Shown here: positions 4,791 to 50,374 of the stretch, in pieces
Layout: the number at the start of each line of letters is the position of its first letter
How positions within the stretch are numbered: position 1 is the stretch's first letter
Origin: an uncultured Methanosarcinales archaeon
GTDB taxonomy: Archaea; Nanobdellota; Nanobdellia; Woesearchaeales; GW2011-AR9
DNA: 64,000 bases
NCBI GenBank assembly: GCA_964344285.1
Contig: CAYFMM010000002.1
Coordinates: forward strand, 72-64,071
Direction: 5' to 3'
Made by a program: the position numbers and the translations under genes
The notes under the pieces: generated by a model
The model's database searches: none
Told to the model about the DNA's origin: nothing
The model's input: only the letters and a program-made list of their open reading frames with translations

Positions 4791-4988
4791 ACATAACCAA
4801 AGACGTTAATACTAAAATAAGCCCTAAGCCAATTGTAGGATAAGAGATTTGTTCTCCAAGACTAAGATTTTTGAAGTTTTTTAATTTGCTAAGAACAAAG
4901 TTTGTAAAATTATTAAGTTTAAGATTAATAGTATTAAGTGATTGTTTGAAATCCATAAAAAAAAGGTAAAGAAAAAGAGTATAAAAAT

Positions 4989-6431: not shown

Positions 6432-6776
6432 ATGAATGAAATATTTTTGAAAAAAAGCGCATTTATTGTGATGACCATTGGGCTTGTTAGTTTGTTTTTA
6501 TATTCTGAGAGTATTGAACTCGAGAGCGTGACTATAATAGATGAGATTCCAGCCGAGGAGGTTGTAAAGATGCAGGGGACAGTAAAAAAGATTTCACAAC
6601 AAGAAAATGTTTTATTTCTCACATTACAAGGATTTCAAGAAGTAGAGACAGAAGCAATTTTGTTTACAGATAAAGAGATTAGGCTACAAGAAGGCGATTT
6701 TATAGAAGTGCAAGGAGAAGTTGAAGAATATAGAGGAGAAAAAGAAGTGATTGTGAATTGGATTAAGAAAAATTAA
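6432..6776 (+). CDS. Small membrane-anchored protein with probable OB-fold-like domain
   Basis: N-terminal hydrophobic anchor 'SAFIVMTIGLVSLFLY' followed by ~80 aa of beta-strand-rich sequence. A 4-nt stop/stop convergent overlap with the kinase gene. Confidence 0.35.
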   Translation: MNEIFLKKSAFIVMTIGLVSLFLYSESIELESVTIIDEIPAEEVVKMQGTVKKISQQENVLFLTLQGFQEVETEAILFTDKEIRLQEGDFIEVQGEVEEYRGEKEVIVNWIKKN

Positions 6777-8251: not shown

Positions 8252-8405
8252 TTTCCATTACACCATATACTGCATATGCGAGTTTTGGGATAAAAGTGAG
8301 CCAATTATATATCTAACCAATATCTAATATATTTAGTATATCTTTTTAAGACAAAGATATCTTTTTGTCGTAAATTTTATAAAAGACTTAAAGAAACAAA
8401 AAAAC

Positions 8406-9275
8406 ATGAAACGTAAAATCATCAAACAAGCACAAGGATCAAGCACAATTATTTTACCTATCAAATGGATTAGAGAACATAATTTACAGCCAGGAGAAGA
8501 AGTTGAAGTTGATGAAGAAAATGGTAAATTGACGATTCAACCAAGGAAAACAACCGTTGAAAAAAAAGAATTATCCCTAAAAATCCCTGCCTCTGAAGAG
8601 ACATATGTGAGAACAATGATCGTAAATGCATATCGGTCAGGATTTGACATAATCCATGTCCAATATGGTGGAAAAGAAGATACGTTACATGAAATCATTG
8701 ACAAATACTTAATTGGTTTTGAGATGCATATTGTAAAAGAAGGGAATTATACCATAGAAGCCGTGAGTGAGCCGAGCACAAATAATTTTGAAGAAATTTT
8801 ACAACGCCAGTTTCATTCTATAAGCTTAATTGTGTCTAATTTAAATGGAGAAGAATCGGTTGTGATTAAAAATGTACAAAAGGTGCAAAGATACGATAAT
8901 TTTTTGAAAAGGTGTTTATCTAAGCGACGACAAAATAGCCCAGAGCTATGGCAATTATTAAGTAACATCACACAAATTGCAAGAGCTTGTGTACATTGTA
9001 AGAAATTTATAGAAGAGAATGAGATTGTCTTAAAAGAGAGAGTTATGCAAGAACTGACAAGAATGTTTTCTTTACTAAAGCAAGCCTTTTTACGTAAGGA
9101 TATTAGTTATTTACAAGAGCTCCATACACGTGAAAAAGATATCGTGTATAGAGAGGAAGAATTTTCAACGCAACCACAGTTAGCATACTTGATTAAGAAT
9201 CTTGCAAGAGTTATTTACATTGCTGGGAGTCCACTTACAGGATGGATTCACCGAACAAAGTTTCAAACAAAGTGA
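8406..9275 (+). CDS. AbrB/SpoVT-type swapped-hairpin domain fused to a PhoU-like helical domain (putative regulator)
   Basis: N-terminus 'GSSTIILPIKWIREHNLQPGEEVEVDEENGKLTIQPRK' is an AbrB/MazE-type fold. The remainder is helical with PhoU-like periodicity. AbrB+PhoU is a known archaeal architecture, but the assignment is tentative. Confidence 0.45.
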   Translation: MKRKIIKQAQGSSTIILPIKWIREHNLQPGEEVEVDEENGKLTIQPRKTTVEKKELSLKIPASEETYVRTMIVNAYRSGFDIIHVQYGGKEDTLHEIIDKYLIGFEMHIVKEGNYTIEAVSEPSTNNFEEILQRQFHSISLIVSNLNGEESVVIKNVQKVQRYDNFLKRCLSKRRQNSPELWQLLSNITQIARACVHCKKFIEENEIVLKERVMQELTRMFSLLKQAFLRKDISYLQELHTREKDIVYREEEFSTQPQLAYLIKNLARVIYIAGSPLTGWIHRTKFQTK

Positions 9276-10754: not shown

Positions 10755-11846
10755 CTAAAAAGAGTTATTTGAATTTATCTGAGAGGAAGCACCCATACCT
10801 GTTGTTTGATCCTTTTGCTCAGTTACTAATTCTTTAAACGCTTCTTCAATTTCTTTGTGTTTCCAACCTGTTTTTTCCATTAAAATTGCACGGATATCTT
10901 CGTCAGTTGTGCCCATTACATGTTCTTTTTTAATCCAAGTTTTAAGTTCTCGTAGATCATACACCATTTTAGGTTTTTTATGATAGTAGATTAGTGCAAT
11001 TAAACCAATGATTGCTGCAAGTAAGATGACACCTGCTCCAATGTAAAGAAGGGTCTTATAACGATCAAAAAATGACGTCGCTGTAGGTTGTTGCTGAGGA
11101 CTTAAAGGGATTTGCGGAGGAAGTAAATCACCTGAAACTCTTGAAGGAAGAAGACCTGAGTCGCCTGCACCACATGTTTTTTGCGTATCAGGTTGTAAAG
11201 CTAGAGTGCTACAAGCGTGTTCATCAACACAAGTCCTTTGTTGAATGCCATTAGAACAAGCTGACCAAGCTGAACAGATCCAAGACTCATCACAAACGTC
11301 ACATTCTTGTGTTTCAATTCTGGGTTGTTTGCCACAAGGACTAATATCAACACATTCCCTTACTTGTTGTAGATCAGAATTACAATATGACCAAGTGCCA
11401 CAACTCCACCTAGCTCTACAAAAATACCCACCACTTCCACCAGAAGAACCACCTGAGCTTCCTGGAGCTGAGCCACCAGAAGTTGGAGGCGGAGCTGCTG
11501 TAGTTGTTGTACAGCCAGGAGAGTTTAAACAGAATAATTGAGACGTACTTCCAGAAACACATTCTACGTTAATAGAATACGTTCCATCTTCAGGATTTGA
11601 AGCAGTGTTATAGGTTCTAGTGTAAGTCCCCACACCTCCTGAAAAATAAATTTGCCTATTGTCTGGACCGATTATTTCAAGAGTCGAGGGTTCTGCACAG
11701 TTAACAACAATGGAAACAATTTCATTATCAAGATAATCAGTTGTTGTACCAATGTCAATGGTTTGAGCCTGAACTAAAGCCAAGGAGAGTAAAACAAGAG
11801 TTAGAAAAATAAAAGTTACACGTTGAGTTCTTGTTATTGTTTGCAT
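10755..11846 (-). CDS. Type I membrane protein: signal peptide, beta-rich ectodomain, G/S linker, two 'WSxCxxxxQxRxC[VI]D' Cys-rich repeats, TM, conserved ~40-aa cytoplasmic tail
   Basis: Signal 'FIFLTLVLLSLALVQAQ'. Linker 'GGSAPGSSGGSSGGSGG'. Repeats 'CGTWSYCNSDLQQVRECVDISPCG' and 'CSAWSACSNGIQQRTCVDEHAC'. TM 'IGAGVILLAAIIGLIALIYY'. Tail 'LKTWIKKEHVMGTTDEDIRAILMEKTGWKHKEIEEAFKEL'. Confidence 0.6.
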   Translation of the reverse strand: MQTITRTQRVTFIFLTLVLLSLALVQAQTIDIGTTTDYLDNEIVSIVVNCAEPSTLEIIGPDNRQIYFSGGVGTYTRTYNTASNPEDGTYSINVECVSGSTSQLFCLNSPGCTTTTAAPPPTSGGSAPGSSGGSSGGSGGYFCRARWSCGTWSYCNSDLQQVRECVDISPCGKQPRIETQECDVCDESWICSAWSACSNGIQQRTCVDEHACSTLALQPDTQKTCGAGDSGLLPSRVSGDLLPPQIPLSPQQQPTATSFFDRYKTLLYIGAGVILLAAIIGLIALIYYHKKPKMVYDLRELKTWIKKEHVMGTTDEDIRAILMEKTGWKHKEIEEAFKELVTEQKDQTTGMGASSQINSNNSF

Positions 11847-11873
11847 TTTATGTTTGAATTTTTAACTAATCTT

Positions 11874-14084
11874 TTAACTTAAGATGATTCCTTGTTCTGT
11901 TGTTTGCACTGCATCTAAACTTTCAGTAAGCACGCCTGATGCATCTGGTGTATAATCAAAAATAATTCTTGCAAAGTTTCTTGCTGCTTGAGACGCTGGT
12001 GCATCTTGAACAAGAACTTCTCTTTGTGCCACGTAATTAGTGCCAGTTGGATTATAGCTGATTAATGCGTCGTAATTTGTTACATCTCTTACAACCTCTC
12101 GTTTGAAAGCAAGGATTACATTATTTGCATCATAGAGTGTTGTGTAAATTGTTAGTTGAGGGATTACTGCACCTGATTCAGAACTAAGTGTAGAACCAAA
12201 ATTCACAGTTGGACTACTTGCAATTACAGGTGGAGCTACACAAGCACCAACATCAATTTGACATGTTACAGGATCACAACTTAGACTTCCTGTTGCTCCA
12301 GCAACTGTTTGAGAAGCACAAGTTGCTGCTCCAAAGTTTGTACCATCACATTCTTCTCCAGCATCAATTACAGTGTTTCCACAGGTTGTTGGAGGAATTG
12401 TTACCGCTGTACAAGTTGCAGTTGTAAGGTCACAGGTTCCAGATGCGCACATTGAGTCAGTAACACAAGTATCACCACCTACCAAGTTTTGACATGCAGC
12501 ATTGCCATCACAATCCAAATCTTCACAATCTACTGGACCGTCACTATCATCATCAAAGCCATCATCACAAATTAATTCTGTTGCGGTAGGAGGAGGAGTT
12601 GTTGTACATTGAGTTACATCAAAATTACAAGTTGCATCACAACTTAACACACCCCCAGTAAAGGTTGAAGCCGGATCATAGTCAGTACAGTCTAGGCCTG
12701 CTGCATAAGAAGGCGTAGCACTGAGATCACATTGTTCAACTGTTGAATCGAATAAGCCGTCGCCACAAGTTGTTGGAAGACTAGAGGTTGGGACACATAG
12801 TTGAGTTGAAGAATCACAGACTCTTCCCGCTGGACAAGCATTAGGATCTAATGGATCGCAAGGTGAAAGGCATGTGTTTAAAGAAGGATCCCATGCACCA
12901 CCTGCTGTTGTACACGCTCCAGAAGTTGTACAACCTATAAGGTTAGTGATATCACAAAAGGAGATCACACAAGTTCCAACGCCAGCAACAGCTGCAGATA
13001 AATCACAAACTTCCCCACCAGAACAATCAGAATCTGTTCGACAAGTACTAGTTGTTGTAAGAGTACAGGAATCACCTAATGTTGGGTCACATGCCCGGCA
13101 TGTCAAGGAGGTTGTATCACACACATTTGTACCTGGACAATCAGTGTCTGTTACACAACTTAAAGCAACACAAGTGTATGTTGGTGTAGCACCAGAATTA
13201 TCACACATAGGAAGAAGAGGATCTGCAGTACAGTGCGCATTTGCAGTACATTCTTGAACAACAATTGGATCACTAATACCATTTGTAATTAAGTCAACAC
13301 TTGCAGTTGAGTCTAGGCTAAAGACATCAAAGGAATTGAAATTAAAATTGTAAGTTCCTGGTGATTGAGGTGCAATAGAGATTAGCGCAACCATAAAATT
13401 GCCAGTTTGTGCATTCGTTGGGTTAAAAGTAGTGTAATCAAAGTCAATTACTGACCCTGTTGCTGTATCAGTACAACTTCCAAGTGGAGTTCCCAAAGAG
13501 GAACTTGTCTCCCAAGTAGATAAACCTGAGCTCTCGACAATCGAGGTCACATCTGCACAACTTAATGAAGGGTCAAGTGCAAGTTGAAACATGACACTTA
13601 CAGTCTCAGCAGTCCCAATGTTTGATCGAATTTCAAGGTTAATATTATCAGAAAGTCCAATGGCAACTGTCGGTGTACTAATTCCTGCAGTGTTTAAATC
13701 TCCAGTATAAAATGCTCTTCCTGCTAATTGATCGGAGAAAAGTAAGAAAAGGCTTAGAATTAAAATTGCAATTACTGCAATACCTGCAATGATCCAGATC
13801 TTTTTGTTTGAGTTTTTTTGGGGCAAATACATCGATTGATTTTGTGTAGCCAATTTTTGTAGAGGAATACGGTTACCAAGATAGGCCTTTGTATTTGTTC
13901 TCTGGTTTATTCTAGTAGGTCTTACGATTCTTTGTGCATCTAATTTTGCTTTTAGTTGTTTTGTTGCAGAAAGGTTAGATCTTTTAGTAGAGCTAACACT
14001 AGAACGGATAGGACGTTTGGAGATCCTTGAAGTCGTTTTTGGTGTTCTTTGTGTCCCTTTTTTCATCGTTCTTTTTTTTGCCAT
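11874..14084 (-). CDS. Type II membrane protein (basic 'MAKKR...' cytoplasmic N-terminus, single TM) with large Cys-rich ectodomain containing Myxococcus-type 'CGDG...GEECD' cysteine-rich repeats
   Basis: TM 'IWIIAGIAVIAILILSLFLLF'. Repeats 'TTCGDGLFDSTVEQCD...' and 'TTCGNTVIDAGEECDGTNFGAATCASQTVAGATGSLSCDPVTCQIDVGAC'. The ORF is 736 aa and Cys-rich. Confidence 0.65.
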   Translation of the reverse strand: MAKKRTMKKGTQRTPKTTSRISKRPIRSSVSSTKRSNLSATKQLKAKLDAQRIVRPTRINQRTNTKAYLGNRIPLQKLATQNQSMYLPQKNSNKKIWIIAGIAVIAILILSLFLLFSDQLAGRAFYTGDLNTAGISTPTVAIGLSDNINLEIRSNIGTAETVSVMFQLALDPSLSCADVTSIVESSGLSTWETSSSLGTPLGSCTDTATGSVIDFDYTTFNPTNAQTGNFMVALISIAPQSPGTYNFNFNSFDVFSLDSTASVDLITNGISDPIVVQECTANAHCTADPLLPMCDNSGATPTYTCVALSCVTDTDCPGTNVCDTTSLTCRACDPTLGDSCTLTTTSTCRTDSDCSGGEVCDLSAAVAGVGTCVISFCDITNLIGCTTSGACTTAGGAWDPSLNTCLSPCDPLDPNACPAGRVCDSSTQLCVPTSSLPTTCGDGLFDSTVEQCDLSATPSYAAGLDCTDYDPASTFTGGVLSCDATCNFDVTQCTTTPPPTATELICDDGFDDDSDGPVDCEDLDCDGNAACQNLVGGDTCVTDSMCASGTCDLTTATCTAVTIPPTTCGNTVIDAGEECDGTNFGAATCASQTVAGATGSLSCDPVTCQIDVGACVAPPVIASSPTVNFGSTLSSESGAVIPQLTIYTTLYDANNVILAFKREVVRDVTNYDALISYNPTGTNYVAQREVLVQDAPASQAARNFARIIFDYTPDASGVLTESLDAVQTTEQGIILS

Positions 14085-14105
14085 TGTAAACCTCTATTTT
14101 ACCTC

Positions 14106-15086
14106 TTAAATTAATCCTGCTGCAGTCATGAAGTTTCTTAGAGATGCAACTACTTGTGAAATTATTTGCCCCACAGATAAGGAGTTATCATTAAGTGTGT
14201 TTGAAATTTCTTGTACTGTTGGAGTACATAAACCCCGTACTTCATCTCTTGCTCCGTCACAAGTACAACCTGAAGCCGCTACGTCTTGGTTATCTGTACA
14301 AGATGTTGCTGGAGGTGGAGTTGTTGCAACTGCACACGTCCCACTTACACATGAACCTGAAGCACACATAGAACTATCATAACAAAAGGAACCATCAGCC
14401 AAGTTAGAACATACACCAATTGTTGCACCGTGACATTGTGTGTCTTGACAATCTATTCTTCCATCCCCATCATTATCATTCCTATCTTGACATAATGCAG
14501 GAGTGTTTTCTGTTGTTGGAGTTGGAGCCGTACAAGCCGATGTATCTATTTGACAGGTTACAGGGTCACAAGATAAACTTCCTCTTGAGCCTGCTCCAAC
14601 TTCAGAAGCGCAAGTTGCTGTCCCAAAGTTTGTGCCGTCACATTCTTCTCCTGCATCAATGTTACCATCCCCACAAGTAGGAGCTGCAACAACACTTAAA
14701 GTAGAAGCTCCAGGTAAAGCAGTTGTTGATCCTTGAAAAATAACTCCACCTGTAAAAACACCTGATGTTGCAGTTGTGGGAGCAGTTACGACATAAGAAT
14801 GAACCGGTGAAGCTGGAATTGAAGTTAATGCCAACTTAAGATTTTGTCCGTTTTGTCTAAAAGAACCTACATCCGAGATTATCCAACCTGCAGGAACTTT
14901 TTCATCAATAGCATAGAAGAGCTCTCCTGCTGCAGGAGTTGCAGTAATTGTAACTGTCACAGTATTCCCTTGAGTCGCTGGGTCTGGACTAAAGGAACGT
15001 GTTGCAGTCCCTGCAAAAGCCATGGGCAGAAGTAGTGCAATTAACGCCACTACGATTATTAATTTCATATTTGTATTTTTCATCAT
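14106..15086 (-). CDS. Secreted protein: beta-sandwich N-domain + Myxococcus-type Cys-rich repeat + 'CQDRNDNDGDGRIDCQD' Asp/Cys-rich module
   Basis: The ORF track runs 14106..15116. I place the likely start at the internal Met giving 'MMKNTNMKLIIVVALIALLLPMAFAG', which removes the overlap with the upstream gene. Repeat 'TCGDGNIDAGEECDGTNFGTATCASEVGAGSRGSLSCDPVTCQIDTSAC'. Confidence 0.55.
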   Translation of the reverse strand: MMKNTNMKLIIVVALIALLLPMAFAGTATRSFSPDPATQGNTVTVTITATPAAGELFYAIDEKVPAGWIISDVGSFRQNGQNLKLALTSIPASPVHSYVVTAPTTATSGVFTGGVIFQGSTTALPGASTLSVVAAPTCGDGNIDAGEECDGTNFGTATCASEVGAGSRGSLSCDPVTCQIDTSACTAPTPTTENTPALCQDRNDNDGDGRIDCQDTQCHGATIGVCSNLADGSFCYDSSMCASGSCVSGTCAVATTPPPATSCTDNQDVAASGCTCDGARDEVRGLCTPTVQEISNTLNDNSLSVGQIISQVVASLRNFMTAAGLI

Positions 15087-15087
15087 C

Positions 15088-15900
15088 TTAGCACCCCGAG
15101 ATATACCAATTATCAATTACTTGGAATAAATCTGTTATAGTTGCAGTACCCGCGTACCAACTGTCGATATAGGAAAATAATTCTGGAACATCAATACAAC
15201 CACTGTTATCTGTATCGCCTAAAAGAGTAGAAACTGTTGTACAACCAGTAGTATCGATTTGACAAGTAGTGGGATTACAAGAGAGAGTTCCTCCAGTAAA
15301 AGAGCCAATATCATCGCATGCAAAACCCTGTAGGTCTGAGCTATCACATTCTTCATTACCCTCTATAATACCGTTCCCACAATTAGGAACAATTATGTTT
15401 ACCGTTCTTTGAGTAGGATCTTGAGAAGCACTAGTGGCGTAAGAACTTCTAAGGGAACCAGAAGCTACCATCCTATTAAAAAAGAATTCTACTGATCTTG
15501 GACTTGTCCCTGCTTGGTAAGTTGCAGTTGCAAATAACAAGTTATTACCAACTACAAAGTTAGTTCCTGAGAGAAGTTCAGGAAGAGGTCTCGTCTCAGC
15601 ATAACGCCATCTAAAATTTTGAGAGACATCATTAATAGTAGATGTAGTTGAAAGTAAATTCTCTCCTTGTTGAGAAATTCTCGTAACTCCACTACTAGAG
15701 TAGTATTCAAATTCTGCATAAGTAAGAGCCTCGTCAGTTGGAACATCCAAATAAACTTGCACATCAAAGGTCTCCCCTACGTAAACAGTTTGAGGGACTA
15801 CAACACGGAAGTTTACAGTTGCTTGAACACTTGTAACAACTAATGAAAATATAATTAATAAGAGTAAGAAAAATTTGAATTTATTGGTTTTTATTTTCAT
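15088..15900 (-). CDS. Secreted cohesin-like N-domain + Cys-rich repeat + C-terminal Ca-loop dockerin-like module
   Basis: Signal 'FKFFLLLLIIFSLVVTSVQA'. N-domain 'TVNFRVVVPQTVYVGETFDVQVYLDVPTDEALTYAEFEY' follows the cohesin strand pattern. Repeat 'CGNGIIEGNEECDSSDLQGFACDDIGSFTGGTLSCNPTTCQIDTTGC'. C-terminus 'GDTDNSGCIDVPELFSYIDSWYAGTATITDLFQVIDNWYISGC' has an EF-hand/dockerin-like DxDxSGxxDxxE loop. Confidence 0.6.
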   Translation of the reverse strand: MKIKTNKFKFFLLLLIIFSLVVTSVQATVNFRVVVPQTVYVGETFDVQVYLDVPTDEALTYAEFEYYSSSGVTRISQQGENLLSTTSTINDVSQNFRWRYAETRPLPELLSGTNFVVGNNLLFATATYQAGTSPRSVEFFFNRMVASGSLRSSYATSASQDPTQRTVNIIVPNCGNGIIEGNEECDSSDLQGFACDDIGSFTGGTLSCNPTTCQIDTTGCTTVSTLLGDTDNSGCIDVPELFSYIDSWYAGTATITDLFQVIDNWYISGC

Positions 15901-15903
15901 AAT

Positions 15904-18195
15904 CTAACACCTAAAACTGGTTTGTGAGGTTCTGCCATTACTACATAAGTGTAAGTCACTAAAAACACGACAAGCTTGCTGATTGCTTGAACCACAATTT
16001 GGTTGAGGGTTGTTGATTAGACTAAATATAAGTTGCTGCACAGCTGCATCTAGTCCATCAAGTATTCCATTACCATCAAAGTCATTGTAAAGATTGTTTG
16101 GCAAGTTTGGATCTTGGCAGGTAAAGGAAGTTTGTCCTGCTTGCCCATTTCTACAGATAAAACCCACTGAATGAGAGCAAGCAGTTTGTTTGTCTATTCC
16201 GCAAGTAGGTTGTGTTGCTGCTCCAGTTACAATTACGCTAAACGCATCTAAATCAAATTGAGTAATATCTCCATCTCCGTTAGTATCCCCTATTGGAAGA
16301 TAAGAAACATAGGTACAAGCCATGTCTAGAGCACAATCATCGTCATTACAATCATATTGTCCATCTAAGTCGTTATCGATTGTATCTGCACATTGCGTTT
16401 CAGTTGTTGGTGCACATCTTGGTAAAGAACTACACTCAGAGTCATCACAATCCACAAACCCATCTTGGTCATCATCCATATTGTTGTCACAAACTTCTAA
16501 AGGAGGCAATTGTGAAGGATTATGAACTGCAAGATTAGCGATTGTTCCTGGAAATAATATAGTGTCATAAACACGAATTTCATCTAAGTGGCCGTTTAAT
16601 CTAGTGCTTGCTTCTGCACCAAAGAAGAGTGTTTGAGCATTAGCCGTCCTTAAATTTAAGTAATCAGTCCCTTGTTTATTTGCACTCCCAGTAGTTGCAT
16701 ATGGGACTGAATAAGCTGGAGCTGCAAATCCATTTACTGTAAGTGTATGGCTAAAACCCTGAACGATGTTGCCCGGAAGAATCGGGTCTATTTGAATTGC
16801 AATATGGTTCCATTGATTAGGCCTAATTCCGGACTTAGTCATTGCTTGATTTCCGTTAACATACAATTGAACTGCACCATCAGCATAGAATAAAGACAGG
16901 AATGCAGTCGTCCTTGTGGGCGGTAGTTTACTAGAACCCCATTGTAAAATCCCTTGACTTGTAAGAGAAGATGTTGGTTTAAACCAGAAACTAATTGTGC
17001 GAGAAGTAGTTAATTGCCGAGGAAAGGCGTAAGGAATTGATAAAAAGCTAGAGCCAGGTGTTGCATATGCACCACGTTGTGTCGAATAAGTATTTAAAAT
17101 ACCATCTGTTGGAATAACTGATGCAGATCCAATAACACTTGCAGTAGTTGCTGTTAATGTTCCTTGGTTTGTGATTCTTGAGCCACTTGTTTGCGCGGTA
17201 AAAGGGAAGTAAAGCTCCACTGGAAGAGTTGCAAGGTTTTGGACAATCTGAGTTTGAGTTGATGTATCAGAAGTAGTTTGAATTGGTGTTTCTGTTGAGC
17301 CTAATTTATCAAGTAGAGAACCTCCAACTGCCCCCGCAGGCTCTAAGCCCCTAATAGGGTCTTTTTGAAGATCTGAAACCAACCCTTTAATTTCACTACA
17401 AGGAGTGTATTGAGAAGGCCAAGGAGAAGTTACACCAGACTGCACCTCTTGACAACCCGTTATATCCAATGTACCAAAAGCATTATTCCTTCCTGAAATT
17501 CGTGATGCAACGTTACATACAACATCTGATTCTGAATTAAAACAAACCTGGTTATCCTGGATTGTTGAAAGATCTGCGTTATTGATTACAAGACCTTGTT
17601 TATTGCCATGAATACGATTATTTGATAATTCTAAACGTTTAGGAGAACTTAGTACAATTCCAAAGACATTTGAAGTGAGTGTATTTTCAGTTAATTTTAG
17701 GTCAGTGATTGAGACTTCTTTGTTTAAACTAGTTGCCTGAATTGCAAAATCATAATTTGTAAAAGTACAACCCTGGATTGTTACACTATTGCTCTTGATT
17801 AATGCACCATAATCACCTTGAGATGCACTGCCATCAATTGTAAAACCTGGTTCACATTTTATTGTCACTGCACGATTTTCAATGTTAAAGCAAGTTTGTC
17901 CCTTAGAAGCTAAGTCAGTAATCACACGATACTCTACAAAAGGTTCAAGCTCAATCCCTTCATCAGTCGGGCATGCTGTTAATTCTTTAATTGGTTTTCC
18001 ACTTTGACAAATCCCAGATACGCAAGATTCTCCTGGATAACAATCTGCATTAACTTTACAAGCAGAACCAATTGCTTGTCCAAATAAGTTGCCAGTCCCT
18101 GAAACATTAAAGTAAAGGAGAAGCGAAGCTAAAAAGATGATACCAACAGAGATACTCGCTATTAACCAAGCCTTATGTTTATCCACCATGTACAC
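15904..18195 (-). CDS. Large surface protein: signal anchor, right-handed beta-helix (pectate-lyase-like) repeats, LamG/ConA-like lectin domain, Asp/Cys-rich module, two dockerin-like Ca-loop modules each followed by a 4-Cys segment
   Basis: Beta-helix 'LSNNRIHGNKQGLVINNADLSTIQDNQVCFNS'. LamG-like 'TISFWFKPTSSLTSQGILQWGSS...LYVNGNQAMTKSG...WNHIAIQ'. Asp/Cys module 'CDNNMDDDQDGFVDCDDSEC...CADTIDNDLDGQYDCNDDDC'. Dockerin-like loops 'GDTNGDGDITQFDLDAFSVIV' and 'NDFDGNGILDGLDAAVQQLIFSLIN'. Confidence 0.6.
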   Translation of the reverse strand: MYMVDKHKAWLIASISVGIIFLASLLLYFNVSGTGNLFGQAIGSACKVNADCYPGESCVSGICQSGKPIKELTACPTDEGIELEPFVEYRVITDLASKGQTCFNIENRAVTIKCEPGFTIDGSASQGDYGALIKSNSVTIQGCTFTNYDFAIQATSLNKEVSITDLKLTENTLTSNVFGIVLSSPKRLELSNNRIHGNKQGLVINNADLSTIQDNQVCFNSESDVVCNVASRISGRNNAFGTLDITGCQEVQSGVTSPWPSQYTPCSEIKGLVSDLQKDPIRGLEPAGAVGGSLLDKLGSTETPIQTTSDTSTQTQIVQNLATLPVELYFPFTAQTSGSRITNQGTLTATTASVIGSASVIPTDGILNTYSTQRGAYATPGSSFLSIPYAFPRQLTTSRTISFWFKPTSSLTSQGILQWGSSKLPPTRTTAFLSLFYADGAVQLYVNGNQAMTKSGIRPNQWNHIAIQIDPILPGNIVQGFSHTLTVNGFAAPAYSVPYATTGSANKQGTDYLNLRTANAQTLFFGAEASTRLNGHLDEIRVYDTILFPGTIANLAVHNPSQLPPLEVCDNNMDDDQDGFVDCDDSECSSLPRCAPTTETQCADTIDNDLDGQYDCNDDDCALDMACTYVSYLPIGDTNGDGDITQFDLDAFSVIVTGAATQPTCGIDKQTACSHSVGFICRNGQAGQTSFTCQDPNLPNNLYNDFDGNGILDGLDAAVQQLIFSLINNPQPNCGSSNQQACRVFSDLHLCSNGRTSQTSFRC

Positions 18196-18286
18196 CTTCT
18201 TTTTAGAGAAAAAGAAGTATACAGAGACTTATAAATGTATCGTTATAGCGACGAGGAGGTTTAGAGTTAGAAAAAGAAGATAAAAA

Positions 18287-18946
18287 TTAGCAACCATTAG
18301 TATACCAGTTATCAATCACATTAAAAAGATAATTTGTTTCAATTATGTTAAGGTACCAACCATCAATAAAGGAAAACAATTCCGGAACTCCAACGCAGCC
18401 ATCCCCAGTTGTGTCCCCAATAATAACAGAAGGAGAAGAAATTACAAGAATTCGGTTTTGAGAGACTGAAGAATCAAAAAAAGAATTTCTTGTAACAGTT
18501 GCACCAAAAGGAGCAGAAGTAGTTGGAAGATCTAGAATAAACGAGCCAGGAAGATAAGATACTGCATCGATGGTTGCAAGTAGACTATTACCCTGGAATG
18601 CAATCCCTCCCGATACATCCATTTCAGAAAAAGACCAAGAATTATATCCGTAAGGTGATTGTTCAAGGCCCGTGCTCGTTATTTCCACCTGAGATGTTTG
18701 AAACATATTATTTGAATTAGCAGACAAAAAAACTACCTCCAAAGGATTTCCTGTTCCAATTGCAGTAAGTTCAAAATCTGCTCCCGTTATTGTTTCTGAG
18801 ATGGGAACATTAACATAGATTTCAATTTGAAAAGGTTGCCCTTGTTGCACAGTGGAAGGAGCATCAATAGAGAATTCAACTACTGCCAAAGTAGAGACCA
18901 TGCTAACCAGAAAAAAGGTAAATAAGAAAATTAATGTAGAGCGCAT
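18287..18946 (-). CDS. Secreted cohesin-like N-domain + C-terminal dockerin-like module (paralog of 15088..15900)
   Basis: N-domain 'AVVEFSIDAPSTVQQGQPFQIEIYVNVPISETITGADFEL'. C-terminus 'GDTTGDGCVGVPELFSFIDGWYLNIIETNYLFNVIDNWYTNGC' is near-identical in architecture to the C-terminus of 15088..15900. Confidence 0.6.
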   Translation of the reverse strand: MRSTLIFLFTFFLVSMVSTLAVVEFSIDAPSTVQQGQPFQIEIYVNVPISETITGADFELTAIGTGNPLEVVFLSANSNNMFQTSQVEITSTGLEQSPYGYNSWSFSEMDVSGGIAFQGNSLLATIDAVSYLPGSFILDLPTTSAPFGATVTRNSFFDSSVSQNRILVISSPSVIIGDTTGDGCVGVPELFSFIDGWYLNIIETNYLFNVIDNWYTNGC

Positions 18947-18947
18947 T

Positions 18948-20054
18948 TTATTTTTTCAAAAATTTATCAACCTTAAGAGGATCCCATCCCCTAGCAACAA
19001 GTCTCGATTTAATCATCTGACCATTCATCCCTCGTTGTTTTGACTTAGTAATGTATTCCTTTAGCGGTGCATATTTTTTGTTATTTGAACGAATTAAGAT
19101 AATAGCTACTACAACAAGTGCAAGCAGTGTTACTCCACTAACTACTGCAGCAACCCACGGAAATTTTGAACTAGAATCAGTATTGCCACCTGCTAAAGGT
19201 TGTGCATCTTGACAAAGTACAAGTAAGGGATCACAAGTACCAGGACAAATTTGTAATATATCGTATCCAGACCCATCAAAGGAACATTGCTCAATTACAT
19301 CACCGTTACATCTTTTTGTATTTGGTTCACAGAACTGTTGTGCTGCTGCAACCCGAGAGGGTTGACAAGTTCTTGATTCTTCAGGTTTAGGTATTTGTGT
19401 AACGTTCATGGTTGCAGGATTACAGTTGTCAATTCTTACACAAGTTCTTGTTTGTTGCGCTCCCTGACATGTTGTCCAACCACTACATTGCCAGTTATAC
19501 CTACAAGTCGTACTTGATTCTTGTGCTGAGGTTGTATCAGAAGAACGAGAACTACCACTTCTTCTTGAACTCCCTGAGCTACTTGGACTGTCTGAATCTG
19601 AAGAATCGGAATCAGAATCCGAACCTGAAGTAGTGTCGTCAGTAGTACCAGTATCACTTGAGTCTGAAGTTGCGGGAGCAAGATAATCCAAATTAAATTG
19701 TTCTACAGTTCCAGCAGAATATGTTGCTGTGCCCACAGGTTGACGAGTTCCAAAAGTATCAAGAACAAAAAAAGTTAAAGTTGCATCTTGAGCAGTGCGA
19801 ACCTTCAAAGTAGGAGAATACCCATATTGAGCATTGGAAATTTGAGTTCTTGTTAGTTCTGTTCCAGAAGACTCCACCACTAAAATAAAAGTGCCAAGAG
19901 GAAGATTTTGAATTGAGCCATAAAATTGATGAAAATCAGTTAAGGACGGAGGGTTGTTTTGTGCCACTGCAAGAGAGGCTAATGAGAAAAGCATACAGAG
20001 AACTATAAGTAATGTTAAAAAACGCTGCAAGGTTGTTTTGCTTCCTTGGTTCAT
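18948..20054 (-). CDS. Type I membrane protein: signal peptide, ectodomain, Ser/Asp-rich linker, WxC Cys-rich repeat region, TM, conserved cytoplasmic tail (paralogous architecture to 10755..11846)
   Basis: Start taken at the internal Met 'MNQGSKTTLQRFLTLLIVLCMLFSLASLAVAQN', an ATGA 4-nt overlap with the upstream gene. The ORF track extends to 20099. Linker 'SDSSDTGTTDDTTSGSDSDSDSSDSDSPSSSGSSRRSGSSRSS'. Cys repeat 'CRYNWQCSGWTTCQGAQQTRTCVRIDNC'. Tail 'LKEYITKSKQRGMNGQMIKSRLVARGWDPLKVDKFLKK' aligns with the tail of 10755..11846. Confidence 0.6.
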   Translation of the reverse strand: MNQGSKTTLQRFLTLLIVLCMLFSLASLAVAQNNPPSLTDFHQFYGSIQNLPLGTFILVVESSGTELTRTQISNAQYGYSPTLKVRTAQDATLTFFVLDTFGTRQPVGTATYSAGTVEQFNLDYLAPATSDSSDTGTTDDTTSGSDSDSDSSDSDSPSSSGSSRRSGSSRSSDTTSAQESSTTCRYNWQCSGWTTCQGAQQTRTCVRIDNCNPATMNVTQIPKPEESRTCQPSRVAAAQQFCEPNTKRCNGDVIEQCSFDGSGYDILQICPGTCDPLLVLCQDAQPLAGGNTDSSSKFPWVAAVVSGVTLLALVVVAIILIRSNNKKYAPLKEYITKSKQRGMNGQMIKSRLVARGWDPLKVDKFLKK

Positions 20055-21631
20055 TGTAATGTATACCTCATTGTTAAGCCACTTGTCGAGTAAATCCAAT
20101 AAGGCCTTCCAGGGATAAGAGGGGTCGTTGGATCAACTTGCGTACAGACATAATTTTGTGCACACGAAAATAGGTTAAACTGTTGTTGTCCTACAAAGTC
20201 AGTAAGTGGCCTTGGCACAATTCCAGGAATGGAAATTAAATTCCACTGAGGTGCAATGATTCTTGTTTGCTCAGTAGGTGAAGGGACAAGTGAAGCAGGC
20301 ATTAAATCTTGTACATTACAAGTAAAGGAAACAGTAGTTGCTTGGGCATTTGTTAATTCTAGGAAATATCCTTCAAAAAGATTGAATTGTGAAATATCAC
20401 CAGGAGAGTTTTGTGATGCCACTACTGGTGCTCCATTGTTAAATGAATAAATTCTTGCTATCTCTGGGTTAGCTGTAAGGAACCGATCAACTTGAGGGCT
20501 TGTTGGAAGACAAGGAAATGCTAGAGGCTGAAGTTGTGTTGTTGCTCTAAGAGTTGCTTCAAATGTTGCTGTTGTTGCAGTAGTAGAAGTCATGCGTAAA
20601 GCAGGGTAATTTTGTTGTTGTTGTGCAAAGACAACATTGCCAACAGCAAAGGTGTAATAGGCATGTGTCTGTTGGGATTGAACGGTTGCAACGATGTCAA
20701 GAACTGCCGCAGTCGAGGAAGAGGGGGCCTGCCAAGAGAAACGTGCAGAGGTAGAATTGTCTACTAATCGTTGTTGAAGATTTGTTAATGGAAGTGCAGA
20801 AGTTTGTCCATTTACTGTGATTTGTGCAGTTATGTCTGGCGAAGTTACACTTGTTGCATTGATGATTCCAGAAAAGGTAGCACCTGGCTGTAAGGAGATG
20901 ATTGGAGTCTGAGCAGTTCTTGGAGGCGCCAAAGTTGCATCAAACACTTCCACAGCAGAAGGTGCTGCATTAACATAGTGTAAGTTTGTAACAGTGATTT
21001 GATTATTTTGAAGTGTTACTTGAAGGTCTGCAATTGGATCTGCTGTAGTGAGGTGAAGGACGGTATTATCGTTTGGAAGGGTAACTTGGTCACGTACTAT
21101 GATCCGATTTGGGTTTGCAGGAGTAGTTGCAGGATAACTTGTTTGAATTGTAAAATTGTAAGTTGGTTGTTGAGCTGCACTAAGAGTTGAAGATGGTTTT
21201 TGTTGAATTGTAAAATTATAGGTCCTATGCGTGAATGAAAGAGGGTCATCAGTAATATTAAAAGTCACAGTCACCGGATTTTGTGGAAGTGTCGTAAAGA
21301 TAAAAGATTCTTCCGTTACTAAGTTTACAGGAGCAATTACTGGCTGAGAGCCAAAGAAGATTGCTTGCCCTACCTGTCCAGAGTAAAACGTCCCAAAGAG
21401 AACAACAACAATGATTAAAAGCAAAGCTATGCTTACAAACATAAAGATACCTTTACCAGATTTTTTTTCTTCGTTAAATTGAGTTGTTGTGTTTTGAGCA
21501 GAAGCACCATTACTAGAAGGAGTAGAGGAGTTAGAAGAAGATCCAGATTGTAATTGTTCTTCAGCTTTCTTTTTAAGGAGAGCTTTTGCAGTTGCTCTTG
21601 TACTCGCTTTTGATGCTGTTGTTTTTGCCAT
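20051..21631 (-). CDS. Type II membrane protein ('MAKTTASK...' basic/Ser-rich cytoplasmic N-terminus, one TM) with beta-rich repetitive ectodomain
   Basis: TM 'IFMFVSIALLLIIVVVLFGTFY'. Internal repeats 'RTYNFTIQQ.../PTYNFTIQTS...'. Many NxT/S sequons. Confidence 0.55.
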   Translation of the reverse strand: MAKTTASKASTRATAKALLKKKAEEQLQSGSSSNSSTPSSNGASAQNTTTQFNEEKKSGKGIFMFVSIALLLIIVVVLFGTFYSGQVGQAIFFGSQPVIAPVNLVTEESFIFTTLPQNPVTVTFNITDDPLSFTHRTYNFTIQQKPSSTLSAAQQPTYNFTIQTSYPATTPANPNRIIVRDQVTLPNDNTVLHLTTADPIADLQVTLQNNQITVTNLHYVNAAPSAVEVFDATLAPPRTAQTPIISLQPGATFSGIINATSVTSPDITAQITVNGQTSALPLTNLQQRLVDNSTSARFSWQAPSSSTAAVLDIVATVQSQQTHAYYTFAVGNVVFAQQQQNYPALRMTSTTATTATFEATLRATTQLQPLAFPCLPTSPQVDRFLTANPEIARIYSFNNGAPVVASQNSPGDISQFNLFEGYFLELTNAQATTVSFTCNVQDLMPASLVPSPTEQTRIIAPQWNLISIPGIVPRPLTDFVGQQQFNLFSCAQNYVCTQVDPTTPLIPGRPYWIYSTSGLTMRYTLQ

Positions 21632-21653
21632 AGTTATTAGTAATTCTTAATTG

Positions 21654-24600
21654 TTATCTTCTTACTTCCACTTCAGTATAATAATTATTGTTTGCCCTAT
21701 CTTCGTTAATTTTTTGTACAATGATTTGAATTGCTTGCCCATCTAAAGTAATAGCCCTTGTATCTCCTTGTGCAAATAAACGATCAAGGATTACTTGTCG
21801 AGGAGTTGCAGAGACATCTGTTATTCGGAGATTGATTAAATCCGTGGGAGTTGCTGTTAATTGTAACACGTATTGATTTCCAGCAGGAGTTGTTACAAAA
21901 TCAAGTAAGCTTGCAGGGAAGGCTCCAACAGTAGAAGTATGGTTAATAGCAATACTTGAACCGTCAGTAGGAACTACGTTGTACGAACGTAGTGCGAATG
22001 TTGCATCAACCGTTCTTTCGTTGATTGGCCCACTTAAGGATTGAGTAATGTCAACAATATTTTGTCCAAGTAAAAGAGTCCCACTTGAAAGGATTGGAGA
22101 TTGCGATTGTATATTTTGAATAGAACTTAATTGTCCTGCAGGATAAGATTGCATTGCAAAGTTTTGTAATAAGCTATCTTGTGCCACTGGTTGGTATAGG
22201 GCGCCTGAGATATTAAACACAGGAACGTCGTTATTAATTACTTGCCCAGTAAAAGCAGTCCAGTTGGTTGGGCCATATGCAGGATTAGTTGAATCTATTC
22301 TTGTTACTTTTCTAATTGTTACTTGTTTATTTTCTCGCGTTAGACCATTTGATTCCAAGACATATTCTTGACCAGCTAAAGTAAGGTATTCATTCCCATC
22401 CACTACAAGTTGTTGCGCTGCTGTAGCTCCCCAACAAACATTTGCTGCAGTTAGGTCTTGGTAAATTTGTTGGTTACATAACTGGAAGCGTTGATTATTG
22501 ATTAAAACACTGTTAGTAGTTGTAAGAGTAAAAGAGTTTTGAGCAACAAAGTTAAGGCTATCTCTAATATCTTGAGAGAGGTAGTAAAATCTAATGACCC
22601 TATTTGGACCTGGAGAACTAGGAATAATAAATTCCACATCCCCTTGAGGGAGAGAGAACATTGCAACTAAGTCTCCATTTCGAGTTTCTAAAGTTGGCTG
22701 ATACACTTGTTGATGGTCTAATGAATAAATTCTTATTTGCTGCATGTCAAAAATTTGAGTTTGTGTATTTTGAGCAGCATAACCAACTGCATAATAGACA
22801 ATTGCATTGGTAATCGGAGTTGTAACTGCAAGAGCAAATTCATTACCGCTGGTTAAATTATTAACAAAGTATTCATCAAATGTACGTTGAGCATAACCAA
22901 GAATATTTGGAACATCATATCTCCTGTAAATAGATACTGTTTTAATAGGAGTATTTCCGTTAACTTGAATGTTGTCGTAATAATATAAGTACGGTCCTCG
23001 CTGAAGAGGTTGTTGATAATTTAGAGAAACTGGTGTTCCACCCACATCTAATTGGAACGTTGGCTGAAACGTTGCAAGATCATTTTGTGCAACTGCAACT
23101 ACCCCTTCGTTTTGAGGAGAAGTAATCCTCACAGGTGTTTGTGAAGACATAGAGACAAAGAGTTGTCCATTTAAATCAACTGGAGTGTCAACTACTTGTT
23201 GAGCTGTTAATGCACTAATTTGGAATGGAGGTGGAGGGACACCATAGTTTCGTTGGATAGTGATTCTTCCTCCATTTAGAGTTGAAAAGTGTGCAATATC
23301 TTCACTGCCAGTTGCAGGGATAGTAGTTTGTCCCGAAGCAGTATAATGAACTAAGTTAATGCTTTGTAAAGATAATTGTGTTTGTTGGGGATGTTCTAGT
23401 AAGTAGACATTATTTTGAAAGCGCACTGCTTTTCTTCTACCTGCAATCATTGCGTTAATAAAGTCATTGTAATTGAGATTAGATTGTGTATTTGCTAAGT
23501 CTGTAAGTGTGAAGATAGATACTTTCTTTTCATTTCCATCATGTTGATAGAGAAATGCATAATCTGTTGTTTGTCCACCTGCAGTCACTGGAAGCACTGT
23601 TAAGACATCACGACGCAGAGTTGCAAGAGTTTGTGCGCCCGCTCCTTGATCATTACATAGTAATGCTTGTTGTAAGTCTGCAGAATTGTCTTGACGGCAG
23701 ATAGTGAGTACACCTAGTGGGTTTGATGCAGGAGTTGTGATGTCAACGGGAGCATTAAGAGCTACTTGAATTTCGTGATCTTGTTCCAAGTTAAAAGGAG
23801 TTACAAAGTTTGCAGGTGCTTCTCCAACATTTCCTGCACGGACCATTACCTGTCCTTGGTTAATTGTGACTATAATTGTCCTACTATTTTCCACATCAAA
23901 GACATAACTATTTGTTCCGGCGTATTGTTGAGCAGCATACGTGGTTAACCTTGGAATGTGGCGAAGTTGGAGCTGATCTAGTGAGAATAAAGTTTGTCCT
24001 GAAGCATGAGTTAATTCATAATATTGATTTTCTAAGACGAATAAAAGAGACTGTCCTTGAATCAAATTTTGTGAAAATATGCCTAAAGGGAATTGAATAC
24101 CTTGTCCCCCTACAGAGATAGAGTTTGTTAGAATTGCATCTACTTGTTTTTGTGATCCTTGAGTCGGTTGTTGATAAAGAAAAGTTATTTGCTGATTCGT
24201 AGTCGGGTTTCTATTTGCATTACGGAGCACAGAAAGTGATTCTATTGGATTTTGTGGAGAACCTTGCAAGCAGACAGTTGCCCTATCTGCTACAGATTGT
24301 GTCCCTTGGTCACAAAGGTAAAGGCCGGGGTGTATCGAAGATCCTCCGGCAGTAGCCGCACCAATATAAGTATTAATGTTGTAACATCCATCATCTTGTA
24401 AAGTGAGAGAGTATGATGCATCAAAGTGAAATCTTTCGTCAAAAATAGTTGTAGGATTTACATTAGGATTACAGATTTGCCATTGTCCGCTACTACAATA
24501 AGCTTTCTCACCACCAGTAGTTGTTCTGATTAATCCTTGAATTTCAGGTGTATTATCGCATTGTTCCCAATCTCCAGAGGGAGTACAAAATAAATTACCC

Positions 24601-24977
24601 ATAACGCCAGTCCCTGCTCCTTCTGAAAAACAATTTAGCCCTCCAAACTTCATGGCACAACTTGCTTGACTTGGGCAACATAATTCTAAAGGAACAAAAG
24701 AAGATGGCACTTCAAAATTACCTGTAGAAGGGTTGTATTGATTAATTCTGCTTGAGATCAATTGGCTTCCTGAAGAACATGATTGACCAGTAAGTACAGT
24801 ACCAACTCCTAAAAAAGCTTGTCCTGCTAAGGCTTGATTAAAGTCTTGATCTTGTTGTGAGTCTATAGCACTTGGAGAATAGTAAAAAGAAGCAACAATA
24901 CCTAAAATCACAACAAAAATGAGAGACGTAACTAGAACGGTCTTTCTATTTGCCTCTTTTCCACTCTTTAATGCCAC
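21654..24977 (-). CDS. 1107-aa signal-anchored surface protein with Cys-rich N-terminal module and long beta-rich Gln/Asn/Thr-rich ectodomain
   Basis: N-terminus 'MALKSGKEANRKTVLVTSLIFVVILGIVASFYY'. Cys cluster in the first ~230 aa. No enzymatic motif recognised. Confidence 0.55.
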   Translation of the reverse strand: MALKSGKEANRKTVLVTSLIFVVILGIVASFYYSPSAIDSQQDQDFNQALAGQAFLGVGTVLTGQSCSSGSQLISSRINQYNPSTGNFEVPSSFVPLELCCPSQASCAMKFGGLNCFSEGAGTGVMGNLFCTPSGDWEQCDNTPEIQGLIRTTTGGEKAYCSSGQWQICNPNVNPTTIFDERFHFDASYSLTLQDDGCYNINTYIGAATAGGSSIHPGLYLCDQGTQSVADRATVCLQGSPQNPIESLSVLRNANRNPTTNQQITFLYQQPTQGSQKQVDAILTNSISVGGQGIQFPLGIFSQNLIQGQSLLFVLENQYYELTHASGQTLFSLDQLQLRHIPRLTTYAAQQYAGTNSYVFDVENSRTIIVTINQGQVMVRAGNVGEAPANFVTPFNLEQDHEIQVALNAPVDITTPASNPLGVLTICRQDNSADLQQALLCNDQGAGAQTLATLRRDVLTVLPVTAGGQTTDYAFLYQHDGNEKKVSIFTLTDLANTQSNLNYNDFINAMIAGRRKAVRFQNNVYLLEHPQQTQLSLQSINLVHYTASGQTTIPATGSEDIAHFSTLNGGRITIQRNYGVPPPPFQISALTAQQVVDTPVDLNGQLFVSMSSQTPVRITSPQNEGVVAVAQNDLATFQPTFQLDVGGTPVSLNYQQPLQRGPYLYYYDNIQVNGNTPIKTVSIYRRYDVPNILGYAQRTFDEYFVNNLTSGNEFALAVTTPITNAIVYYAVGYAAQNTQTQIFDMQQIRIYSLDHQQVYQPTLETRNGDLVAMFSLPQGDVEFIIPSSPGPNRVIRFYYLSQDIRDSLNFVAQNSFTLTTTNSVLINNQRFQLCNQQIYQDLTAANVCWGATAAQQLVVDGNEYLTLAGQEYVLESNGLTRENKQVTIRKVTRIDSTNPAYGPTNWTAFTGQVINNDVPVFNISGALYQPVAQDSLLQNFAMQSYPAGQLSSIQNIQSQSPILSSGTLLLGQNIVDITQSLSGPINERTVDATFALRSYNVVPTDGSSIAINHTSTVGAFPASLLDFVTTPAGNQYVLQLTATPTDLINLRITDVSATPRQVILDRLFAQGDTRAITLDGQAIQIIVQKINEDRANNNYYTEVEVRR

Positions 24978-50364: not shown

Positions 50365-50374
50365 GGGTATAATA

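Follow-up and report, generated by a model that had tools for sequence, protein, structure and literature searches.

Do the surface-protein genes on the minus strand at 10755-24977 of this archaeal DNA encode a modular assembly, in which cohesin-like sockets receive dockerin-like plugs? The window, by which we mean the whole stretch of 64,000 nucleotides (nt) that was analysed (64 kb), carries nine consecutive co-directional genes in this interval. They had been pointed out in an original prediction made from the DNA letters, and all of them are present in the window's list of open reading frames (ORFs) at the positions given there. By hydropathy scan all nine products are predicted to be exported by a signal peptide or to be anchored in the membrane. 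Taking our results together, we give an even chance to a divergent cohesin/dockerin-like socket-and-plug surface assembly of a Woesearchaeota/Nanoarchaeota (DPANN) archaeon. In it, the protein of 736 amino acids (aa) would provide a membrane-proximal cohesin-like socket, the 270- and 219-aa proteins, each with socket and plug, would serve as adaptors or chain extenders, and the 763-aa protein would be a lectin-like cargo that plugs in by its C-terminus. Binding of plug to socket would be calcium-dependent, and the type I proteins of 363 and 368 aa would tie the assembly to the cytoplasm through conserved tails. This layout of anchor, adaptor and cargo is consistent with the anatomy of the cluster and of related loci.

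What are the putative sockets? The 219-aa protein (gene 18287-18946; like all cluster features on the minus strand) and the 270-aa protein (gene 15088-15900) are small secreted proteins with signal peptides. As predicted, they are homologous in both their parts: BLAST aligns the N-terminal regions with 40% identity over 55 aa and the C-terminal modules with 55% identity over 47 aa (E 2e-16). The N-domain spans residues 21-172 of the 219-aa protein (18431..18886) and residues 27-172 of the 270-aa protein (15385..15822). An AlphaFold2 model of the mature 219-aa protein, built on a 5-row alignment (mean predicted local distance difference test score, pLDDT, 66; predicted template-modelling score, pTM, 0.66), folds into a beta-sandwich of about nine strands followed by two C-terminal helices, and in an independent Foldseek run all 11 matches of this model with E<=1e-3 are cohesins. 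A third domain of this kind, overlooked in the original prediction, follows the transmembrane (TM) helix of the 736-aa protein (residues 121-278, 13251-13724). For the AlphaFold2 models of the 219-aa protein and of this post-TM domain the top fold-search matches are cohesins only; in three fold searches cohesins clearly outrank other sandwich classes, and the predicted models have the nine-stranded flattened jelly-roll of the cohesin fold. Comparison of the 219/270-type with the 736-type domain family by hhalign gives a probability of 10%, so that the two cannot be called homologous from their sequences. Since they have no detectable sequence similarity, their models amount to largely independent predictions, and both arrive at the cohesin fold. 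We consider the cohesin fold of the modelled domains very probable on the basis of these models, and the N-domain of the 270-aa protein would share it through its homology to that of the 219-aa protein. The claim of cohesin-like N-domains has thus come through the structure-prediction check that had been proposed for it.

The putative plugs are the 47-aa modules that end both small proteins (18290..18430 in the 219-aa and 15091..15231 in the 270-aa protein). They contain a 12-residue loop of the form D-x-D-x-[DSN]-G-C-[IV]-x-x-x-E, which in the 270-aa protein (DTDNSGCIDVPE) is of the canonical EF-hand type with Glu at position 12; the loop of the 219-aa protein is DTTGDGCVGVPE. The loop leads into an exiting helix, [VP]-P-E-L-F-S-[YF]-I-D-x-W-Y (VPELFSYIDSWY in the 270-aa and VPELFSFIDGWY in the 219-aa protein), and after a turn of 5-7 residues a second helix, x-x-x-L-F-x-V-I-D-N-W-Y (ITDLFQVIDNWY and TNYLFNVIDNWY, respectively), repeats the first (6 of 12 residues identical) before the terminal G-C. 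In the 219-aa model DSSP assigns strand and coil ahead of the loop and helices to mature residues 167-178 and 184-197, both with pLDDT values of 80-92. All ten modules with Cys at loop position 7 end in Cys; among the seven without it, four lack the terminal Cys and three pair a terminal Cys with a Cys in the N-terminal flank. From this covariation a disulfide that clasps the ends of the module is probable.

Is such a module a dockerin? The 47-aa module is not a canonical one. The Pfam model Dockerin_1 (PF00404, gathering score 22.9 bits) does not match it in either protein, and it does not have two loop-and-helix segments of ~22 residues within ~60-70 aa: in its second segment the helix is kept and the loop is reduced to a remnant of 5-7 residues. 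It is dockerin-like in four ways, namely the loop with an exiting and without an entering helix, the internal duplication, the adjacent termini and the C-terminal position in secreted proteins. The first of these, at the terminus of a protein predicted to be exported, is found at the ends of the 270-, 219- and 763-aa proteins alike. The dockerin-like character that had been proposed therefore holds by analogy only, and the single loop, the Glu at position 12 and the lacking Dockerin_1 match speak against it. A profile of 17 C-module sequences retrieves calmodulin-type EF-hand loops from the PDB with a whole-sequence E of ~5e-10, a value summed over several loops; the single-loop matches are weak. 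Pfam EF-hand_6 reaches 17.2 bits on the 270-aa module (cut-off 25), and EF-hand_1 stays below threshold as well. With calmodulin-type EF-hands the module shares the exiting helix and the 12-residue loop D-x-D-x-[DSN]-G-x-[IV]-x-x-x-E. It is not a helix-loop-helix pair, however, having one loop per module and neither an entering helix nor a second hand, and it differs further in its predicted position at the extreme C-terminus outside the cell, its repeated helix and its probably disulfide-linked ends. An Excalibur domain (DxDxDGxxCE) was considered for the module and rejected: the Cys stands at another loop position and there is no Pfam match.

The 763-aa protein (15904..18195; 761 aa from the ATG at 18189), the candidate cargo or lectin, ends differently. 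It has a TM helix (18109-18165), a NosD-type beta-helix (17527-17877; Pfam, 1.4e-8), a Laminin_G_3 domain (16540-17010; 3.4e-11) and two acidic double-disulfide repeats (16315-16494), on which the model NF033662 scores 45.7 bits over two stretches and exceeds its cut-off of 41; the same model stays sub-threshold, at ~29 bits, on the 736- and 326-aa proteins. Its end is made of two units (16117-16293 and 15907-16086) with starts 68 residues apart, each consisting of a D-x-[DN]-x-[DN]-G-x-[IL]-x-x-x-D loop, a helix and a 4-Cys knot. The original prediction had given this protein two modules of the kind seen in the small proteins; two dockerin-type units are indeed present, but they differ from the 270/219 module and have Asp at loop position 12. 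Against Dockerin_1 the C-terminus reaches 16.0 bits (E 0.014), below 22.9 and over the loop region only. A profile of the C-terminus gave 18 weak matches in the PDB (E 0.08-3.6), at least 11 of them dockerins and each covering a single loop-helix segment. With segments 68 residues apart, each carrying a 4-Cys insert, the end of the protein is not a compact dockerin. The same double unit ends the product of 1446-3494 in a related locus (L004; the related loci are described below). In another one, L008, a secreted protein is composed of a sandwich, a Cys-rich region and 'GDIDVDGDIDPDDISQFIYVYN...ADLDQDLLLGPDDISEFIFHYN'; a profile of two L008 modules found dockerins in five of six PDB matches, the best being 2y3n_B (E 0.033) with both segments aligned. 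Dockerin_1 remains sub-threshold in these loci: of the two L008 modules one scores 18.6 bits (E 0.0022) and the other has no match, and a module in L011 scores 19.2 bits (E 0.0015). Consecutive large proteins encoded by L005 6141-9960 and L011 2-5718 carry lineage-specific C-terminal variants of loop and helix, e.g. 'GDLDFNGIVNTDDVEWIKSNPSSFWNSFLHKDIKNLNLFIKNMVENW' and 'ADIDADGDVDVDDAQEYIV...IDWENIKLFTYLYFNQP', which suggests that plug types diversify fast between genomes.

Could all this be an artefact of low-information motifs, with sandwich patterns and D-x-D-x-D-G loops meeting by chance in fast-evolving orphan proteins? In word-indexed searches of 5.8 billion proteins the 270- and 219-aa queries behaved as orphans and found essentially only themselves. 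An exhaustive HMMER search of 1.84 billion cluster representatives gave 17 matches only (E<=1e-3); a scan of genome collections with alignment A7 yielded zero confirmed relatives and a metagenome scan only two contigs that were already known. Such rarity might be expected from chance, but the two small proteins are paralogues with high significance (E 2e-16), independent metagenome-assembled genomes (MAGs) have the modules too, at a syntenic locus, and the fold searches are specific to cohesins. Chance is also opposed by the specificity within the 64-kb window, where the profiles of N-domain, post-TM domain and C-module and the loop motif match only the cluster ORFs of 736, 270, 763 and 219 aa. 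We regard an artefact as extremely improbable.

Where the modules recur, they do so in varied combinations of parts. The N-domain is found in P0012 (annotated as Candidatus Woesearchaeota) and P0017 (MAG GCA_964598745.1), which consist of signal peptide, N-domain and Cys-rich repeats, and in P0019, which has the architecture of the 219-aa protein. The C-module stands at the extreme C-terminus of P0006, P0007, P0008, P0010 and P0011. These proteins run from a basic N-terminus through a TM helix, an xGxA motif and a beta-domain to a Cys-rich or LamG region and the C-module, and residues 121-278 of the 736-aa protein form this same beta-domain (alignment A3, composed of these residues and the same domain of relatives). 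Alone or in tandem, the C-module occurs in the small proteins P0009, P0013, P0014 and P0016. A cohesin-like domain is also present in 6 of the 13 C-module proteins outside the window, and in 8 of all 15 C-module proteins both modules lie on one polypeptide. This last count might also be read in another way: proteins such as the 270- and 219-aa proteins, P0006-P0011 and P0019 could bind each other head to tail in trans and grow into chains, fibres or a lattice, or they could fold back on themselves in an auto-inhibited state. That the window holds two paralogous proteins with socket and plug would suit this view, as would the duplicated helix, which suggests a two-fold symmetric binding surface. 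However, ordinary adaptor scaffoldins share the same architecture, with cohesin and dockerin of differing specificity, and the data do not separate self from non-self specificity. We consider head-to-tail polymers or fold-back improbable.

With the conserved C-terminal half of the 363-aa protein as seed, a scan of genomes identified 10 loci in Woesearchaeota/Nanoarchaeota MAGs; each of the 10 encodes a 363-type protein (33-47% identity). HMM scans of all their ORFs revealed a TM-anchored cohesin-like domain in most of the loci, often in two copies; the 270/219-type N-domain and the C-module are sporadic. Wherever a locus encodes a C-module protein, it also has a TM-anchored cohesin-like protein that lacks the C-module. 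In L004 (the contig of P0017) and L005 (the contig of P0008) the related clusters lie beside genes for tRNA-anticodon-OB, S6e, nitroreductase and FtsZ, a neighbourhood that matches 588-5429 of the window. By these comparisons, related MAGs have the same modules in new arrangements at their orthologous locus. Only the window encodes the 1107- and 526-aa proteins, which have no counterparts in the 10 related loci. The records of L007, L008, L011 and L013 are titled 'uncultured Methanosarcinales archaeon', although the loci are related to Woesearchaeota/Nanoarchaeota and one of them was checked to be syntenic; this taxon label is probably wrong.

Does it follow that sockets and plugs pair? Several results weigh against a socket-and-plug assembly. 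In Pfam and NCBIfam scans of the nine proteins and of isolated domains, no window protein reaches the threshold for Cohesin or Dockerin, and PF00963 (Cohesin, gathering score 24.1 bits) finds no match in the 270-, 219- and 736-aa proteins or in their isolated domains even at E<=10. The profile searches that had been suggested as a check thus placed the proteins in neither family. In relatives of the 736-type domain PF00963 stays sub-threshold, with 18.6 bits in P0008 (E 0.0023, covering 8-113 of the 139 profile positions) and 13.3 bits in P0011. The 6-sequence profile of alignment A3 had as its only matches among PDB sequences three C. perfringens NagJ cohesin entries (E 0.19). An 8-sequence profile of the same domain has no PDB match, and a NagJ match that is lost on adding two sequences is fragile and gives a hint only. 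A 5-sequence profile of the 219/270-type N-domain likewise found nothing in the PDB, and phmmer searches of PDB sequences with the 270- and 219-aa proteins returned only spurious matches (designed beta-propellers and a viral protein). For both AlphaFold2 models, each built on only 5-6 aligned sequences, the confidence is moderate (pLDDT 66), and AlphaFold2 is biased towards known folds. As to the plug, position 3 of the 219-aa loop is Thr instead of the canonical Asp or Asn; the C-module has one loop instead of two and its profile is nearer to calmodulin loops than to dockerins; and hhalign aligns it with the dockerin-like module of L008 at a probability of 76% over the first loop and helix only. 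Finally, a G-x-A motif behind the TM helix of the 736-aa protein (see below) could be a signal-peptidase site, which would mean that this 'anchor' is released.

These results might be explained by generic adhesins without any pairing of sockets and plugs. The sandwiches would then be stalk or Ig-like spacers, and the C-module a calcium-stabilised disulfide cap or a binder of an external ligand such as a host surface, an S-layer or a glycan. Membership in the cohesin family fails by sequence, the C-module is nearer to an EF-hand loop than to a dockerin, and calcium-binding Cys-rich repeats (TSP_3, MopE, acidic disulfide) are common here as structural elements, all of which would fit such adhesins. 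On the other hand, cohesins outrank the other sandwich classes in the fold searches, the C-module is found repeatedly with cohesin-like domains in one protein or one locus, and its positional equivalents at other loci resemble true dockerins. We judge adhesins without pairing to be somewhat unlikely and prefer the cohesin/dockerin-like socket-and-plug assembly. That this assembly serves adhesion to a host or a substrate is a weaker suggestion, which draws on the DPANN lifestyle and on the presence of LamG and beta-helix domains. The furthest-reaching form of the idea we think rather unlikely: a lineage-specific, Pfam-invisible analogue of cohesin and dockerin, its plug reduced to one loop with a duplicated helix and a disulfide clasp, and encoded at a conserved shuffling locus (near ftsZ in L004 and L005, the relatives with flanks read), would build the host-attachment apparatus of these ultrasmall archaea, and the rapid exchange of socket and plug types would amount to host-range evolution.

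How does the assembly compare with known systems? With the adaptor and anchoring scaffoldins of Clostridia and Ruminococcus cellulosomes (type I-III; PDB 1ohz, 4uyp, 5lxv) it would share the predicted cohesin fold, short modules of calcium loop and helix at the extreme C-terminus of secreted proteins, adaptors with socket and plug, and a membrane- or cell-bound socket protein beside a plug-only cargo. It differs in that PF00963 and PF00404 stay below threshold or without match, and in that there are no multi-cohesin scaffoldin, glycoside hydrolases, carbohydrate-binding modules, S-layer homology domains or sortase anchoring; TM helices take the place of the latter, and long Cys-rich stalks are present. 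A dockerin has two loops with Asp at position 12 in 60-70 aa, whereas the 270/219 plug has one loop with Glu at position 12 in ~45 aa and a Cys-Cys clasp. Closer in setting are the non-cellulosomal modules: the Archaeoglobus fulgidus cohesin (2xdh), the cohesins of Clostridium perfringens NagJ, NagH and sialidase (2vo8, 2jh2, 2ozn) and proteins of anaerobic methanotrophic (ANME) archaea. These too come from non-cellulolytic hosts including archaea, have one or few cohesins per protein and presumably act in complexes at the surface or outside the cell. Standard domain libraries see them, in contrast to the domains of the window, which differ also in their DPANN host, in C-terminal modules that are reduced or carry a 4-Cys insert, and in their conserved, module-shuffling locus. 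Many dockerin and cohesin proteins of ANME archaea have been reviewed (PMC9012536), and the same review cites Bayer 1999 and Haimovitz 2008 for the known binding between archaeal cohesins and dockerins. With such modules known from archaea, the principle itself is not new.

The remaining features of the cluster concern its anchors and stalks. Hydropathy scans gave signal peptides for the 270-, 219-, 326-, 363- and 368-aa proteins and a single N-terminal TM helix for the 736-, 526-, 761/763- and 1107-aa proteins. Of the latter, the 736- and 526-aa proteins are type II, with a long and basic N-terminal region in the cytoplasm; the 363- and 368-aa proteins, with signal peptide, C-terminal TM helix and cytoplasmic tail, are type I. 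Cys-rich anchors of both types had been predicted, and the topologies stand; the 526-aa protein, with 4 Cys, is not Cys-rich. The 736-aa protein (11874..14084), our candidate anchor, has a cytoplasmic N-terminus of ~95 aa that is basic; the TM helix (13737-13793), the residues LAGRAF and the cohesin-fold domain follow, and then a long stalk rich in Cys (44 Cys) and the C-terminal domain. The first gene of the cluster encodes the 1107-aa protein (21654..24977), which has a TM helix at residues 13-33 followed by LAGQAF, no Pfam or NCBIfam match and no relatives in the syntenic loci. The 526-aa protein (20051..21631; cytoplasmic N-terminus of ~60 aa, TM helix at residues 61-83) has no Pfam or NCBIfam family match either. 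The secreted 326-aa protein (14106..15086), with an orthologue at L005 11618-12592, joins its signal peptide to a small beta-domain (TATRSFSPD...VPAGWIIS), a DUF4215-like repeat and an acidic double-disulfide repeat. DUF4215 / myxo_disulf_rpt-type Cys-rich repeats are found in the 270-aa protein (CGNGxxExxEECD..., 15241..15384) and, by BLAST paralogy, in the 326-aa (14532-14678) and 736-aa proteins (12240-12386 and 12606-12770). The family models that had been proposed for them gave sub-threshold scores only: the 270-aa repeat reaches 20.6 bits with PF13948 (E 5.4e-4, cut-off 27 bits) and 16.4 bits with TIGR02232 (cut-off 20.8 bits), the 326-aa repeat 15.9 bits with the DUF4215 / myxo_disulf_rpt models. 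By its pattern the CGxGxxExxEECD repeat is probably a divergent member of this group.

The 363-aa protein (10755..11846) is the product of the most conserved gene of the locus. Behind its signal peptide and Ig-like N-domain come two CxxxWxCxxWxxC motifs (11334-11426 and 11211-11297); the TM helix (10983-11045) and the cytoplasmic tail, which is conserved (10824-10982), complete it. Its paralogue, the 368-aa protein (18948..20054; BLAST, E 2e-12), has a signal peptide, an acidic Ser-rich linker and one CxxxWxCxxWxxC motif (19422-19508); behind its TM helix (19092-19157) a tail of ~47 aa lies in the cytoplasm (18951-19091). The tails of both proteins and those encoded at L004 ~8900-9050 and L005 ~15250-15400 have a motif of ~45 aa in common, W-x-K-x-E-x-x-x-G-[TS]-x-x-[DE]-[IV]-x-x-[IL]-[LV]...G/T-W...[IV]-E-x-x-F, with 35-45% identity across MAGs. 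This motif could couple the surface assembly to some cytoplasmic partner. A stretch similar to it also stands at the start of the ORF at 51574-52197.

Many proteins of the system share a further conserved motif behind their N-terminal TM helix, [LFV]-[AVF]-G-[QKR]-A-[IFY] (LAGRAF, LFGQAI, LAGQAF, VGQAIF, FVGKAI). In the window it is found in the 736-aa (13713-13724), 763-aa (~18072-18089) and 1107-aa proteins (~24813-24830) and in the 526-aa protein, again behind the TM helix; outside the window it occurs in P0006-P0011 and in L004 and L008 proteins. It could be a processing or recognition site. The motif is compatible with a -3/-1 signal-peptidase site, but the cytoplasmic regions that precede it (30-95 aa) are unusual for a signal peptide. 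Because the motif lies behind the hydrophobic segment and not ahead of it, we rejected a pilin-type (class III) signal.

Is the cluster expressed as one unit? Starting from the 1107 gene the spacers are 22, -4, 1, 91-97, 3, 1, 21 and 27 nt. The original prediction had described 2-30 nt spacers or ATGA overlaps throughout. The ATGA at 20051-20054, where the stop of the 526-aa gene overlaps the start of the 368-aa gene, bears this out; the gap of 91-97 nt between the 219- and 763-aa genes (18196-18286), the only long one, does not. An oligo-T run stands right after the 219 stop codon and a TATA-like element, 'catttataag', ~45 nt ahead of the ATG of the 763-aa gene; they may be an internal terminator and promoter, and from this junction the cluster possibly forms two transcription units. 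Upstream of the 1107-aa gene lie ~600 nt that are non-coding or coding on the opposite strand and include a TATA-like box. The cluster genes are identical in the ENA contig ERZ930065 k127_58283 (192 kb, PRJEB17505), where gene calling at internal ATG starts turns the ORFs of 383, 336 and 763 aa into 368, 326 and 761 aa.

The AT-rich archaeal genome that had been assumed is borne out. The GC content of the window is ~0.37, and it contains S6e and FtsZ genes. A tRNA of 123 nt at 47344-47466 (-) was found by Rfam (42 bits) and not reported by ARAGORN, which is tuned to bacterial-type tRNAs; it probably has an archaeal intron. The sole named relatives of the cluster proteins are proteins of Candidatus Woesearchaeota/Nanoarchaeota MAGs. 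From the tRNA, the S6e gene and these relatives, the organism is, on sequence grounds, archaeal.

Directly upstream of the cluster and on the same strand, 25586-38452 (-) encodes three further exported proteins: a 2482-aa protein with CARDB/Big_13, a 1525-aa S8 subtilase with CARDB/PKD/HYR and a 294-aa SdrD_B-like protein of lipoprotein type. As they adjoin the cluster, the two together make up a surface-protein island of ~28 kb. Profile and motif scans found no loop-helix module or cohesin-like domain in these three proteins; the related locus L011 also has an S8 homologue. Between the cluster and the S6e gene (6773-9275) two genes encode a Ser/Thr protein kinase of 492 aa and a protein of 289 aa whose N-terminal domain is of the MazE/AbrB type, both without counterpart among the genes called at the equivalent positions of L004 and L005. 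Two SBBP beta-propeller proteins are encoded at 41041-45929. Three tandem membrane paralogues of ~190 aa near a 772-aa ATPase of the T2SSE family (type II/IV secretion), at 49795-51518 (+) and 52767-55085 (+), may be a pilus- or secretion-related module.

To our knowledge, the attachment of DPANN archaea to their hosts is largely obscure and most DPANN surface proteins have no annotation. Our full-text literature searches turned up no paper that ascribes cohesin or dockerin modules to Woesearchaeota. New here are the DPANN lineage, the extreme divergence of domains that are invisible to Pfam and detectable by fold only, the reduction of the plug to a single loop with a clasp beside a second variant of loop, helix and 4-Cys, and the placement of the system at a conserved locus that shuffles modules. 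If the pairing is true, the window and the 10 related Woesearchaeota/Nanoarchaeota loci would offer a concrete and testable attachment scaffold, and the 47-aa single-loop plug would be a minimal interaction tag for protein engineering. The cohesin-dockerin principle would then reach into a lineage, and into a region of sequence space, that escape the standard domain libraries.

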